From a virus: a DNA stretch of 64,000 nucleotides. Position numbers and translations under genes: made by a program. Position 1 is the first letter of the stretch, and each line of letters begins with the position of its first letter. A model generated the notes under the pieces. It searched no databases. It was given only the letters and a program-made list of their open reading frames with translations, and was not told the DNA's origin. Where the stretch lies: IMG/VR virus record IMGVR_UViG_3300020020_000003, positions 1,075 through 65,074 of that record. One strand, given 5' to 3'. Positions 10 through 16,310 of the stretch are shown piece after piece.

Positions 10-954
10 TCATTTGTAGTGATCCGCTATCTTGTACAGTGGGCAACCTATGAGCTGCTTTTCTGTACTTAGTATAGCACATTGAGTCGGGTGAGTGCAA
101 GCCCATCGTCCTTCGGATTGGACTTGAACATATTTGCAAGTTCGACAGTTTCTGTCAGGTGCTCGTTTCATATGACAGATAGGTTTGTGTTCGCACCAGG
201 TACATTTCCAGAACCCCGGCGAGGTACTGAGCTTAGTTGGGGGCGTCGCAGCTTGTATCAATTTCTCGCCTCTCTCAATGTACTGATCTGCATGCTCAGG
301 ATTGAGAGTAAGTATCTCGATATAAAGATCATCCGTGTTCTTGTTGACTGCCATATAGAGACAGCTCGCAATACCCATCTTACGCATGTAGATTTGTGCT
401 TGAACAAAGTGTTCTGGTTTTCCATCGCGAACACCTTTACCTTTAAAATGACCTTCGCTAGCTAGATATGCCCGCCATTCTTCCAGCTTTCCTGCTAACT
501 CGATAAAAGATCTTTCGTTATGAGTTTTGCATTCAAGAAGAGTGGGGCTGTTATTATAATGTGTGACCCCGTCACCACTTCCACCACCGTGGCCATCCCC
601 AAACTGAATTCGAAATTGCTTTCCTTCTGCGTCTTGTTGATAGACAGGCATTCCAACAGTGAGTAGCATCGCGATGAAACGCGCTTCCTCAATGTGCCCA
701 CGATTAAATAGACGGAGCATACGACCTTGGTGCGCAGCCTTGGTAGCCCATCGAAAACTGTACCATACGGCGCGGCCACAGTCATGACCGAGCTGAGAAG
801 CTCCCATGTGGCTTCGATGAGACTCTTCAGTGTCTCTGTATGCATCCGACATATGCGGAAGTACCTGACCGAGCCAACCTCTGTATGCAGCACCTTGATC
901 AATTGCAATAGCTTTATCGATAGCGAGACATAAATCCCGAGCAATATCAACCAT
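10..954 (-). CDS. Cas4-like PD-(D/E)XK exonuclease (phage recombination type)
   Basis: GASQLGHDC...W N-terminal motif, GSGDG and LECKT nuclease motifs, HFVQAQIYM helix, C-terminal CxxCxxxxxC Fe-S-type cluster; neighbours are SSB and Sak4. Confidence 0.8.
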   Translation of the reverse strand: MVDIARDLCLAIDKAIAIDQGAAYRGWLGQVLPHMSDAYRDTEESHRSHMGASQLGHDCGRAVWYSFRWATKAAHQGRMLRLFNRGHIEEARFIAMLLTVGMPVYQQDAEGKQFRIQFGDGHGGGSGDGVTHYNNSPTLLECKTHNERSFIELAGKLEEWRAYLASEGHFKGKGVRDGKPEHFVQAQIYMRKMGIASCLYMAVNKNTDDLYIEILTLNPEHADQYIERGEKLIQAATPPTKLSTSPGFWKCTWCEHKPICHMKRAPDRNCRTCKYVQVQSEGRWACTHPTQCAILSTEKQLIGCPLYKIADHYK

Positions 955-7469: not shown

Positions 7470-7764
7470 TGATCTATAGAAATATTCTGTACAAAGGGAG
7501 TACGTGGATTCGTCTGCAGATAGTATAGACGCTGTCGATCGCATTTCTCTCTTTTACAGAAAGTAACACCTGCCGGTGTCAACCTGAAATTGCTTCGAAC
7601 AAGGGAACTGGCTCCGCAGTTGACACATTTGAAGTTAGGCACAGAATTCACTCCGTTGTTTGTACCAATTATAGTGTAGCAGGATTCTAGGCTCGATGCA
7701 AGCAACAAATGGCCTATCGATTTTCGTTTGTATATCATGGTGCCATGCTGCGTTGCACTGTCGA

Positions 7765-10627: not shown

Positions 10628-10687
10628 AGCGGGTAAGTCCTTCTGTTGGCAGAATGAAGCAGTGTTGGGTTCTGGACCCAAAGTAAA

Positions 10688-10716
10688 ATGTAGCATGGAT
10701 CTGGCGGTGATTGCAA
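10688..10716 (-). promoter_or_regulatory. putative sigma70-type leftward promoter
   Basis: minus strand cTTGCAA-N17-CTACAT, close to alphaproteobacterial CTTGAC-N17-CTATAT. Confidence 0.55.
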
Positions 10717-11402
10717 GTATCAAAGCTTTACGAGATGGTGGGCAGTAGCACGGTGGAATAGGAGGTACGTGTTGGTTACACCGGCGCAATGACAAGGGGT
10801 CATAGTTGTAGACAACTTATCATAGTTGTACGAGTTACCGGGCTGTAGTGGGGCTGTCTAAGCTGGTTTAAATAGGTAGTCGAGTAGGATAGGGTGAGGA
10901 ACGGCAAATGGGGAAATCTAGGAAATATGAATTACAATGGTGTAGGGATGAATTCTAAAAGAATACCCGGCAAATCTGGAAAAGGGCTGGCACGGGGAAA
11001 TATTTTTCGCCGGGGGGCCCCCTTTAAGGGGAGCGTGTCAAACGTGTCATGTAGTTTGCAACCTCGAACGTGACAACAGAAAAGAGATGAGCTCTTACTT
11101 AGTTATATATTTATATATTTCTATTATATATATAATTAAAGAAAACAAGCACTTAACCCCCGAATGTCCACTTATCTTCTATATTTATCGTTTTTATATG
11201 GGATTTTCGCTTGTCTTCCTCGAGTATTCATGTTTATCTCTTTGTTTTTTCTTATTCTTGGTCGAGCTAATTTGCCCCTAGGCCAACTTTCGCCTGACGC
11301 ATTTTTCATTTGCATCCCACAACGTTCTATGCTACGGTAGCAAATGGAGCGCGTCATCAGTTTCCTAAGGGAGACCAGTGCTCCAGTTAGAGTAAGTTCG
11401 GA

Positions 11403-11712: not shown

Positions 11713-11782
11713 TCGCAAGTAGTGTAACGGAAGCACCAGCTCCTCCAAGGCTGAGATCGGTTCGACTCCGACTTGCGAGCCA
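11713..11782 (+). tRNA. atypical 70-nt tRNA-like gene (anticodon most simply TCC, Gly; Trp-like features)
   Basis: acceptor TCGCAAG/CTTGCGA, encoded CCA, D-arm GTGT/GCAC, TTCGACT T-loop; lacks N26, 4-bp T-stem, C33, G73. Confidence 0.6.
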
Positions 11783-13213: not shown

Positions 13214-13429
13214 CGGCGGTAAACGCATACCAGGTATGCCCCCCGGGGTGAACACCAAAACCACCTCAATTATCCACCGAGGCGGCAGGTCGTTCGCACG
13301 TTTTCCCATTTTTGATTCGGTCCTCTAAATATCTTCACCCCTAAAATTCCTCTCCTTGATTTTCACTTCTTGCGCGCGCCCTAAAACTGAATCGGTCATC
13401 TGACCCCAACAACCCAGAAGGCTCCGTCC

Positions 13430-14005
13430 ATGCAGACAGACCCCATCCCACTCCTAGACCCCACCTTCCTTATCCTTAGATGTCACCCACGCGACACGAT
13501 TCCCCTTTCAATCCTCCATCCCTATCTCTACTGCCCGACTACATCTATTCTCATCCGTAAAGGACCCTCCCGCACACGAACCCATGTGGTGTTCCCTATT
13601 CTCCCTTCGTTTCTTTTTCTTCCGACCCATCTCCCACTCCCAACTCCAGCCCACAAACTCCATGCGATGAAACGACCCCACTCACATCCCTCCCACCCCC
13701 ATCTTTTCTCCATCAATAACCCCCTACCTGACACCATCCCCAGACGACCTCCAACATCTTTCGCTTATTGTTTTCTTTCTGAGATAGAGGTTATGACATC
13801 GCAACACCATATCCTTTCTCTTCCGGCTGACTTTCCCTTTACGATTGGTTCTCGTGTTGAGGTCACTGATGGCCTCCTTGCTGGCGCGCAAGGAATAATT
13901 ACAAATATTAGGACAAATAGAGATATCACATTGAAAATCCAGCAACATTTGGGATGGCAATTTTCCACTTGCATCGTTAACGCGAGTGTGTTACGCTCTC
14001 TGTAG
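13430..14005 (+). CDS. NusG/RfaH-family paralog (NGN + KOW), candidate late antiterminator
   Basis: FLILRC...LYCPT...R...V.FPILPSFLF resembles NGN; FTIGSRVEVTDGLLAGAQGII is a clear KOW motif. Confidence 0.65.
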   Translation: MQTDPIPLLDPTFLILRCHPRDTIPLSILHPYLYCPTTSILIRKGPSRTRTHVVFPILPSFLFLPTHLPLPTPAHKLHAMKRPHSHPSHPHLFSINNPLPDTIPRRPPTSFAYCFLSEIEVMTSQHHILSLPADFPFTIGSRVEVTDGLLAGAQGIITNIRTNRDITLKIQQHLGWQFSTCIVNASVLRSL

Positions 14006-14154
14006 GTGTTCAAGTTGTGCCTCTCTTTAACTTTCAGGTGTGTTCAGCCGCAAGCGCACACCGACCCCTGCGATGTAGTGGACCCCTTCACACATCGCCT
14101 CGCCTCTGATCCCGCTCAGAGGCACTGTTGAAGTCATGCGTGCAATTGAACACC
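14005..14154 (+). ncRNA. putative 150-nt multi-stem RNA element
   Basis: closing helix GGTGTTCAA/TTGAACACC plus inner hairpins GGTGTG/CACACC, GCGATGT/ACATCGC, GCCTCTGA/TCAGAGGC. Confidence 0.5.
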
Positions 14155-14216
14155 AACCTGTTTTCTTTGTACCCTTGAGTACCACGACCTCTAAGATTCG
14201 CCAATCTACTACTTCA

Positions 14217-14250
14217 ATGACTGGGCCCCCTGAGAGCCCAGTCATTTTTT
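14217..14250 (+). terminator. intrinsic terminator just upstream of terS
   Basis: ATGACTGGGC-N9-GCCCAGTCAT followed by TTTTT. Confidence 0.75.
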
Positions 14251-14269
14251 ATGACTATATATCAGCACC

Positions 14270-14779
14270 ATGAGCACACCCTCCCAACCCTCCTCTATTC
14301 AGGTGAATCTGACTCCCGTTAACCTTACTGCGGAGTTGCAGAAGGTTCACTTGTCCGATTCCCTTACTCGTGATCAGCACGCTGACTTACGCACGTTGAT
14401 ACTGGACGCTGCGGCGGCGATCGGTATGGATGGGTCCGGGCGTGATGGTCTCCTTGGTTATTTGAAATACGCAGCGAGCACCTTCCCGAAGCAGTATCTC
14501 CAGGTTATTGCTAAGGTGCTTCCGTTACAGATTGATTCCAAGTCCACGATCAACGTGATCGAGCATGTGAACATCGTGTCGGTACCTTCTGATCGATACA
14601 TGCCTCGCCAGGCTTTCGCTAACGAGAAAGTTGAGGTTCCCAATCTAGCTAACAATCTGGTAGATATTACTGATCTGAATCTTGACGCCACCTCCGACGC
14701 CATTCAGACCATCGAGGATGTGTTGAACAACCCCACTCCTGTTTCACTCGATGTCACACTTCCAGACGATGCTGCCTAG
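14270..14779 (+). CDS. terS: terminase small subunit (probable)
   Basis: DGLLGYL..AA...PK.Y...IAKVLPLQI motif of alphaproteobacterial phage TerS-like proteins; position before TerL. Confidence 0.6.
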   Translation: MSTPSQPSSIQVNLTPVNLTAELQKVHLSDSLTRDQHADLRTLILDAAAAIGMDGSGRDGLLGYLKYAASTFPKQYLQVIAKVLPLQIDSKSTINVIEHVNIVSVPSDRYMPRQAFANEKVEVPNLANNLVDITDLNLDATSDAIQTIEDVLNNPTPVSLDVTLPDDAA

Positions 14780-14781
14780 CA

Positions 14782-15063
14782 GTGAGGTTCCGTCCTGGAG
14801 ATCTACCAGAAGGTGACCCCTCCCAGCCCAATACTCCCGTCGAGTGGGAAGACAATGCAATCTCCAATCTCTTTGCTTACCTCAGCCACAAGCTTACTCC
14901 TTCCTGGTGTCAGACACCCGAGCACTGGACGTCCCGACTCACCCAATACCTGTTTACGGACTGTCCTTGCTGCATTCTGTTTCGTGGTATCTCTGTTGGT
15001 CTATTACTGGGTCTACCGCTTGGTATGGTCTTGGTTATCTTAATCGCCTTGGTTACAAAATGA
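14782..15063 (+). CDS. small membrane protein with CPCC motif
   Basis: C-terminal hydrophobic helix; fills the gap between terS and terL. Confidence 0.45.
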   Translation: MRFRPGDLPEGDPSQPNTPVEWEDNAISNLFAYLSHKLTPSWCQTPEHWTSRLTQYLFTDCPCCILFRGISVGLLLGLPLGMVLVILIALVTK

Positions 15064-16310
15064 ATGCTCCTGCCCCAAAGGCCCAACTAGATCTCCATCT
15101 GGGAGAGAAGTTTGTTCGAAATCTTTGGGCTCCGGCTCGTCACCACGCACTGTTTGGTGGACGAGGTTCTGCGAAGTCTTGGTCCGTCGCCAGCTTCCTT
15201 ACTGTGATCGGCGGTCAACAGACTAAGAAGATAGTGTGCGCCAGGCAATTCCAGAATTCTATCCGTGACTCCTCCAAGGCCTTGATTGAGAAGCGAATTA
15301 CTTCTCTCGGCTTTACAGGCCACTATAAGGTAACGGATCAATATATTACGCATGTCGAGACTGGCTCTGAGTTCTCTTTTGTTGGGCTTGAGCGTAATAT
15401 TGATTCTATTCGTTCTCTCGAAGGTGCTGACATTGTTTGGGTAGAAGAGGCGCGTACGATTCGCGCTAAGTCAATGGAAGTGTTGCTCCCTACGGTACGC
15501 TCCCCAGGCAGTTTCTTTATCTGGACGTGGAATCCCGAGAAGCCTACTGATCCTGTGGATTACTACTTCCGGAACACGAAAGAAGGACCTCCGCCTCGCT
15601 CCCTTGTGACGTTCGTTGATTGTTCGGACAATCCGTATTTTTTCCAGACTGAGCTACCCGAGGAGCGGGAGACACTTAAGAGAGGCAACTTCGAACGCTA
15701 TAAGCATGTCTGGCTCGGCGGATACGATACAGCAGCCGACTCCAAGGTCTTCTCGAACTGTACTACTGGTATCGTTCCTGTCCCGATTGATTGTCCGCCA
15801 CGATATGGGATGGACTTCGGCTTCGGAACAGATCCGTCGTTTATTGTTAAGGTCTACTTGATCGAGGCAATCAAGACAATCTACATCGCAGCGGAGGCTA
15901 GTGGTCGTGTTCCTATGGATCAGCTGCCTACACTTATCCGCTCTGTGGTTGACTCAGACTATGATCTTATCAAGGCAGACAGTTCGCAGCCTGGAACAAT
16001 TGAATTTCTTAATGCTCGTGGATTCCCAAATATCGTTGGTGCCCAGAAAGGCCCAGGTTCCGTTAAGTCCGGCATCAACTTCATGTCGGGTTATAAAATT
16101 GTCATCCATCCGCAATGCGAACAAATGCGCGATGAGGCGCGGCTTTACTCGTTTATGACGGACAAGCTCAGTGGGAAAGTATTACCTGGCCGTATTCCTG
16201 TGGATGCTAATAATCACGGTTGGGATAGTTCTCGTTACGCGCTAGAGGACGTTATCAGCAACCCTGCTAATGATGACGATCCTTTCGGCGGCGTTGTGAA
16301 GCTCTGGTAG
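15060..16310 (+). CDS. terL: terminase large subunit (PBSX family)
   Basis: GGRGSAKS Walker A, WVEEA Walker B, TWNP, YGMDFGF RNase H-like nuclease, DANNHGWDSSRY; real start ATG 15060. Confidence 0.92.
   Translation: MNAPAPKAQLDLHLGEKFVRNLWAPARHHALFGGRGSAKSWSVASFLTVIGGQQTKKIVCARQFQNSIRDSSKALIEKRITSLGFTGHYKVTDQYITHVETGSEFSFVGLERNIDSIRSLEGADIVWVEEARTIRAKSMEVLLPTVRSPGSFFIWTWNPEKPTDPVDYYFRNTKEGPPPRSLVTFVDCSDNPYFFQTELPEERETLKRGNFERYKHVWLGGYDTAADSKVFSNCTTGIVPVPIDCPPRYGMDFGFGTDPSFIVKVYLIEAIKTIYIAAEASGRVPMDQLPTLIRSVVDSDYDLIKADSSQPGTIEFLNARGFPNIVGAQKGPGSVKSGINFMSGYKIVIHPQCEQMRDEARLYSFMTDKLSGKVLPGRIPVDANNHGWDSSRYALEDVISNPANDDDPFGGVVKLW

Follow-up and report, generated by a model that had tools for sequence, protein, structure and literature searches.

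The 264-nt intergenic gap (14006-14269) between a NusG/RfaH-like gene and the putative small terminase gene (terS) of an uncultured phage encodes a real, evolutionarily conserved folded RNA, which, judged from its sequence and covariation, is a new family absent from Rfam. We propose that this RNA forms part of a late-gene leader in the style of lambda PR'/tR', on which the protein from the adjacent NusG/RfaH-like gene would be loaded in the fashion of LoaP and would let RNA polymerase read through a terminator, a reading to which we assign a probability of roughly 50%. The proposal rests on the arrangement of a predicted promoter, a structured RNA and a terminator between a NusG-type gene and the first late gene, together with the precedent of LoaP. 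An earlier reading of the locus, made from the nucleotides without database searches (the sequence-only reading), had marked 150 nt of this region as a multi-branched RNA and offered three explanations for it: a loading site for the NusG paralog, an antiterminator RNA like HK022 put, and a packaging-associated RNA or pac-site cruciform. By layout and analogy, the loading site appears to be the best supported of the three.

The stretch of DNA analyzed (64,000 nt, here called the window) belongs to an IMG/VR virus record of 71.8 kb that carries terminal repeats. The features of the locus are collected in Table 1. Directly 3' of terS lie the large terminase gene TerL (14844-16310; Terminase_3, E = 5.5e-25) and then the portal gene, while the terS product itself had a single match, to PHROG 11043, a family of unknown function. 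The gap between terS and TerL (14779-14844) is 64 nt long; the TerL start is listed as GTG, matches to the TerL of cultured phages begin only at residues 80-94, and the position of its true start is uncertain. This TerL is nearest to those of Synechococcus and Agrobacterium phages, and the cultured phages with the closest TerL (Synechococcus phages, 54%) have neither the NusG-like gene nor the RNA. Among the cultured phages of INPHARED we found no DNA match and no tblastn match of the NusG-like protein, and no prophage copy was present in the GTDB genomes searched. A search of the window for tRNA and tmRNA genes returned only a tRNA-Gly at 11713.

Table 1. Features of the NusG-like gene, leader RNA and terS region, with related promoter-like sites (window coordinates).
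Feature	Coordinates	Strand	Description
NusG/RfaH-like gene	13430-14005	+	191 aa; NGN-like N-terminus, KOW-like C-terminus
Frozen silent codon block	13871-14005	+	Last ~44 codons of the NusG-like gene
Predicted promoter	13969-13997	+	-35 TTGCAT 13969-74; TG 13989-90; -10 TACGCT 13992-97
Promoter-like family sites	71-100 (-), 7673-7701 (-), 10687-10716 (-), 11310-11338 (+), 13969-13997 (+)		
Multi-branched 5' domain	14005-14154	+	Closing helix 14005-13/14146-54; minimum-free-energy fold
Hairpin 1	14037-14062	+	Conserved apical UCAGCCGCAAGC (GCAA tetraloop)
Hairpin A	14070-14098	+	GCGAUG/CAUCGC outer stem, asymmetric internal loop, GUGGA/UUCAC inner stem
Hairpin B	14102-14123	+	GCCUCUGA/UCAGAGGC; relatives insert long apical sequences
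Conserved 12-mer	14127-14138	+	GUUGAAGUCAUG; family consensus GUURARGUCRUG
Intrinsic terminator	14217-14250	+	10-bp stem AUGACUGGGC/GCCCAGUCAU, U run 14245-50; in minimum-free-energy fold
Invariant box	14252-14265	+	TGACTATATATCAG; between terminator and terS ATG; single occurrence in window
Putative small terminase (terS)	14270-14779	+	169 aa; first late gene; assigned by position only

The sequence-only reading described a closing helix around three hairpins, and this arrangement is present and is the minimum-free-energy fold of the 150 nt from 14005 to 14154. The folding energy of -62.4 kcal/mol is better than that of dinucleotide shuffles (-38.9 +/- 3.6 kcal/mol, z = -6.46), none of the 200 shuffles folding as well, and the opposite strand of the same stretch reached a z-score of only -2.94. 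The boundary that had been drawn around the element was too narrow, the conserved non-coding unit being the whole 264-nt gap; 252 nt of the gap fold at -85.8 kcal/mol (z = -5.56). A second, mutually exclusive fold had also been suggested, in which GTGCCTCT (14017-24) pairs with AGAGGCAC (14118-25). The two segments are exact 8-bp complements, but their role as a switch did not hold up: the best fold containing the pairing (-47.3 kcal/mol) lies 15 kcal/mol above the optimum, the pair probability in the ensemble is 0.0, co-transcriptional prefixes form the local hairpin first, and the complement is missing from L045-type relatives (sequences read by eye). We treat this complementarity as incidental.

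The whole window had no match to Rfam (release 15) at gathering score, and the region 13400-14800 had none even at E values up to 10, the phi29 pRNA family included. No open reading frame in the leader is conserved across relatives; the frame that begins at the ATG/GTG of the 12-mer varies from 2 to 75 codons, and a leader peptide was rejected.

Relatives of the locus were gathered by protein-guided scans of IMG/VR and JGI metagenomes, which yielded about ten distinct contigs of uncultured phages that probably come from soils and sediments, to judge by the JGI sample series. Every relative with downstream sequence has the NusG-like gene, then a non-coding gap with the RNA (206 to 412 nt), then terS. 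This co-occurrence of the RNA and the NusG-like gene is synteny among kin and not an independent association. Hairpin A, hairpin B and the 12-mer are common to the relatives and present once per genome, and a covariance model of this core found exactly one copy per phage, at 40-102 bits; the sole other match in the window had an E value of 0.36. A motif scan of IMG/VR returned this phage group and one more contig (L034), where the match apparently falls in high-GC coding DNA and was taken as chance.

Covariation among relatives, which the sequence-only reading had proposed as a check, was found in the core. When 13 sequences were aligned by fitting them to the model, 94% of cells were paired and 9 of the 19 base pairs showed compensatory change. 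None of 500 shuffles reached the observed values, and sliding the pairing partners by one to three columns lowered the paired fraction to 32-53%. The signal is strongest in hairpin B, where both sides have changed at seven of nine pairs and 100% of cells remain paired across the 13 sequences. Hairpin A is present in all 13, with A-U replaced by G-C in the outer stem of five.

Around this core the leader architecture is modular, with extra hairpins in relatives. The loop of hairpin 1, UCAGCCGCAAGC, is kept in the window and in the L045/L059 and L048 clades, while its stem, compared between the window and L045, has changed on both sides at all six pairs and still pairs; hairpin 1 was not found in L050-type relatives. 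The 5' end also closes the domain in L045 and L048, with different sequences, and the whole leaders of two relatives fold with z-scores of -4.8 and -8.1. A pattern search matched the 12-mer in every relative but L049, which carries the looser GAAGGTGCTGAG instead. In the window, L045 and L048 clades the 12-mer has its pairing partner upstream, and in L050, L051, L053 and L069 the partner is downstream, so that what is conserved is the sequence of the 12-mer and not its partner. Relatives have an extra conserved hairpin, GCGGGGACGG...CGUCCCCGC with a CUUCUACU loop. A second conserved hairpin, GCGGGGACGGACUUCUACUCCGUUGGACGUCCCCGC, lies between core and terminator in L050 (L050:2184-2219) and at the same place in L051, L053, L063 and L069, and is absent from the window's clade; in the window and L045, a related CUACUUC motif is single-stranded just 5' of the terminator.

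We assign the structure to the plus-strand RNA because G-U pairs are frequent in it and the minus strand folds less well. The same evidence weighs against the suggestion that the element is a DNA packaging signal (a pac site or cruciform) or a terminase packaging RNA, which the position beside terS and TerL brings to mind. Pairs that covary through G-U would be A-C mismatches on the other strand, the minus strand has a z-score of -2.9 against -6.5, a promoter-like motif and a terminator bracket the element, and neither phi29 pRNA nor any other Rfam family matches it. With the claim disfavored on all these counts, we consider a role in packaging exceedingly improbable.

The protein encoded upstream of the RNA appears, from its profile and fold matches, to be a divergent NusG-type paralog that stands outside every curated subfamily, and every family match we obtained for it lies below the curated cut-off of that family. 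A Pfam search with the 191-aa protein itself gave no match, the Q-family included. Its C-terminus matches PHROG 6386, annotated as 'transcription antiterminator' (E = 4.7e-5), and its profile matches the KOW domain of Spt5 (E = 0.0035); there is also a match to the NCBIfam UpxY antiterminator (E = 1.2e-4) that is far under the curated cut-off. A profile search of 1.8 billion representatives found 102 relatives, and some distant members of the family weakly match Pfam NusG (NGN), RfaH and UpxY over their full length. An AlphaFold (AF2) model built on 21 homologues has modest confidence (pLDDT 64.5), and its top Foldseek matches are chains of NusG, RfaH and Spt5, the best with an E value of 2e-4 and a TM-score of about 0.3. 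The NGN domain is seen only through this fold search and the weak matches of distant homologues.

A promoter-like sequence, TTGCAT-N17-TACGCT with a TG, sits within the last codons of the NusG-like gene. We counted five instances of the motif TTGCN{15,17}TGYTAYNNT, which is of the extended -10 type, in the window, where 0.23 would be expected; none of 100 shuffles reached five, and the other four sites are plausible operon starts. The site at 71-100 lies inside the 3' end of an open reading frame (10-954, minus strand), as does the site at 13969-13997 in the NusG-like gene, and an ATG at 11344 follows 6 nt after the end of the site at 11310, where a leaderless mRNA is possible. By hand count, the predicted promoter agrees with the classical consensus at only 6 of 12 hexamer positions, and a generic promoter scan did not list the site 13969-13997. 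Its style resembles that of alphaproteobacterial housekeeping promoters. The predicted start of transcription (14004-14006, 7-8 nt from the -10 element) falls just where the closing helix begins, at its first base.

The string ACT TGC ATC ... GTG YTA nnn T, which contains TTGCAT and TAnnnT separated by 17 nt that end in TGn, is invariant at silent positions in all relatives, and the -10 element stays TAnnnT throughout. In a codon alignment of nine divergent relatives, 11 of the 16 degenerate codons for invariant residues are identical from residue 148 to the stop; up to residue 147, none of the 29 columns with an invariant residue keeps a single codon, and silent variation is saturated. Frozen silent positions reach about 100 nt upstream of the -35 element (13871-13968; for example GAT ATC nCA TTG AAA), and for these the core promoter alone is an insufficient explanation. 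The fold of the RNA was rejected as the cause, the folding of the frozen block being unremarkable (z = -0.53). An antisense open frame (13765-14013) spans the block and is open in eight of the nine relatives. The freezing of 13871-13968 may possibly reflect an upstream regulatory site, a second signal or this antisense frame.

At the other end of the leader, every close relative has a GC-rich hairpin followed by T5-T7 about 15-25 nt 5' of terS, and the stem sequences differ among them. In the window, a simple terminator scan missed the terminator at 14217-14250 because its loop is longer than 8 nt. From the predicted start and this terminator, we infer a transcript of about 245 nt that begins at 14005 and ends 20 nt before terS. 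Pairing of the 12-mer with the 5' arm of the terminator was considered as an antiterminator and rejected: the complementarity is 6-7 nt in the window and, by eye, 4 bp or fewer in L045 and L050.

A scan with more distant paralogs, for which we used the narrower alignment A7, the broad alignment A6 being too diverse for a locus scan, revealed two further lineages (L078:2001-2660 and L076:2001-2700). Their NusG-like genes are about 30% identical to the window's family and have a terS-like gene directly 3'. In L078, a gap of 85 nt separates the NusG-like gene from the terS-like gene, and the core lies 12 nt 5' of the terS-like start. This gap contains a compact hairpin A with UAGUGG...CAC and a covaried outer stem, then hairpin B (CUUCGAG/CUCGAAG), then GUUAAGAUCAUG; it is the best match of the core model in 21.6 kb (13.2 bits, E = 0.019) and lies at the syntenic spot. 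No terminator was found in the L078 gap. L076 gave no core-model match; its gap differs, and part of one hairpin overlaps the stop codon. The arrangement in L078 suggests that the core is older than the terminator gate and is a 5' UTR element in that lineage. It also indicates that the core is not tied to the leader terminator, which counts against the leader reading.

Two other readings of the RNA meet difficulties in L078 and elsewhere. An element that begins at a stop codon and ends in a terminator could be the 3' UTR of the NusG-like mRNA, transcribed from upstream of 13430, where it would stabilize or insulate the message and end an early rightward unit; strong 3' structures protect mRNAs. 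This would explain neither the internal promoter motif and its silent-site conservation, nor why hairpin A and the 12-mer are conserved in a sequence-specific way, nor the terminator-less arrangement of L078, and we regard it as quite unlikely. A helix junction close to the transcription start and followed by an intrinsic terminator is also the classic layout of a riboswitch, with the junction as aptamer and the terminator as expression platform. The distance from core to terminator, though, ranges between about 80 and more than 200 nt, hairpins being inserted there, the junction topology varies by clade, no conserved antiterminator alternative was found, Rfam gave no match at E = 10, and L078 again has no terminator; a ligand-sensing attenuator of this kind seems to us very improbable.

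The leader reading must also account for the invariant box between the terminator and terS. The box TGACTATATATCAG is identical in relatives whose TerS shares only 65-75% identity, and more distant relatives have TATAGT, TATAAT or TATTAT at its place, which in four relatives reads as a fair -10 element. We saw no room for a -35 element between the terminator and terS, and found no Shine-Dalgarno sequence before terS, though many other genes of this phage have one. The box (14252-65) could be a late promoter with a -10 element only, a translation signal for a terS that lacks a Shine-Dalgarno sequence, or a processing site. If it is a separate late promoter, read-through is unnecessary, and this too counts against the leader reading.

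A late start at the TATA-rich box would fit the main rival of the leader reading, a free-standing, stable and highly structured phage sRNA of ~245 nt that would act in trans on targets of the host or the phage, or on a protein, with the NusG-like gene an incidental neighbor. The RNA appears to own a promoter and a terminator, like stable RNAs it has a paired 5' end, its 12-mer and CUUCUACU-type motif keep their sequence while the pairing context changes, much as a seed or a protein site would, and the box at 14252-65 is invariant and reads as -10-like in several relatives. Yet the box has neither a -35 partner nor a match to the phage's five-member promoter motif. In L078, which has no terminator, the core sits 12 nt ahead of the terS-like start and is a 5' UTR there, a position better suited to a recruitment site than to a free-standing sRNA. 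We therefore consider an sRNA acting in trans unlikely, and return to the late leader with a loaded NusG paralog.

The cassette resembles the lambda late switch (Q/PR'/6S RNA/tR') in that a regulator gene lies directly upstream of the promoter and a short RNA, 194 nt in the case of lambda 6S RNA, ends at a terminator before the late genes, so placed that read-through would give access to a single, very long late operon. This architecture was found in silico in the gene at 13430-14005, the promoter motif at 13969-97, the terminator at 14217-50 and terS, terL and portal downstream. It differs from lambda in three respects: the phage protein is NusG-like and not of the Q-family, a Q-binding element or sigma-dependent pause could not be shown here, and the leader is strongly structured, with the structure conserved by covariation.

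LoaP of Bacillus velezensis, which acts at the dfn/mln leader, shares with our system a specialized NusG paralog, a leader RNA structure 5' of a terminator and a long operon, and without a hairpin in the leader RNA it does not overcome a NusA-dependent intrinsic terminator (PMC12691694). The phage locus has the corresponding parts, namely conserved hairpins A and B, a terminator and an adjacent paralog gene. The target of LoaP is one small UNCG hairpin, whereas here there are two hairpins and a 12-mer with variable apical loops; no UNCG loop is conserved in hairpin A, whose loops are CCCC, UUUG, GCAA, UCAG and CUCG in different relatives. LoaP serves a cellular antibiotic gene cluster and not a phage, and the phage protein is no LoaP orthologue by any test run.

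RfaH, which uses the ops site in Enterobacteria, and UpxY in Bacteroides act on the leaders of long, horizontally acquired operons. The phage protein may share their NGN and KOW architecture, which is predicted for it, and its best weak profile matches are to UpxY and, through distant members, RfaH, all with scores far under the family cut-offs. The ops site GGCGGTAGnnTG, with up to two mismatches allowed, has 50 matches in the window and none within 14005-14270, and the signal at this locus is an RNA structure in place of a 12-nt element in the non-template DNA.

HK022 put, the second of the three explanations offered in the sequence-only reading, consists of two stem-loops of about 70 nt and acts without a phage protein. 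Like put, the phage RNA is structured, close to a promoter and upstream of a terminator, and would be tied to its read-through, the nascent fold itself binding RNA polymerase. Here, however, the neighboring gene encodes a candidate protein partner, and the RNA is a larger, modular molecule, multi-branched with variable parts where put has two simple stem-loops. A constitutive antiterminator acting in cis would render the adjoining conserved terminator pointless, and Rfam gave no match. A put-like mode of action is possible but less economical than loading of the NusG paralog, and we rate it as very unlikely.

In the leader that we propose, a host-type promoter in the final codons of the NusG-like gene would start transcription at about 14005, and the nascent RNA would fold into a multi-helix domain made up of the 5' closing helix, hairpins 1, A and B and the conserved 12-mer. 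RNA polymerase that had not been modified would halt at the terminator (14217-14250), 20 nt before terS. Once enough of the NusG/RfaH-like protein had been made from the adjacent gene, it would be recruited to the elongation complex by way of hairpin A and the 12-mer, and the modified polymerase would pass this terminator and continue through the long late operon of packaging and virion genes. The ends of the transcript, the binding of protein to RNA and antitermination are all steps that we infer. We tentatively suggest, at somewhat less than even odds, that the conserved core, in which hairpin A has a UAGUGG/CAC internal loop and is joined by hairpin B and the 12-mer, may be a dedicated platform for recruiting the phage NusG paralog, and that together with the promoter and the leader terminator it may form a self-contained late switch that has no sequence relationship to lambda Q/qut, RfaH/ops or LoaP/UNCG.

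Specialized NusG paralogs (RfaH, LoaP and UpxY) are known from cells and plasmids. Our literature search for a phage NusG paralog found no study. A 2021 review of the NusG family mentions phages in other contexts only and names no phage-encoded member (PMC7819879). The RNA family will be useful for annotating the boundary of the late operon in uncultured soil phages. If the proposed mechanism is true, the locus would represent a virus-encoded, RNA-guided antitermination system built on a NusG paralog, and would offer a compact, testable protein-RNA pair for studying how NusG paralogs are targeted. To switch on its long late operon, the task that falls to Q in lambda, this group of phages would then have borrowed a universal elongation factor and paired it with a new structured RNA.
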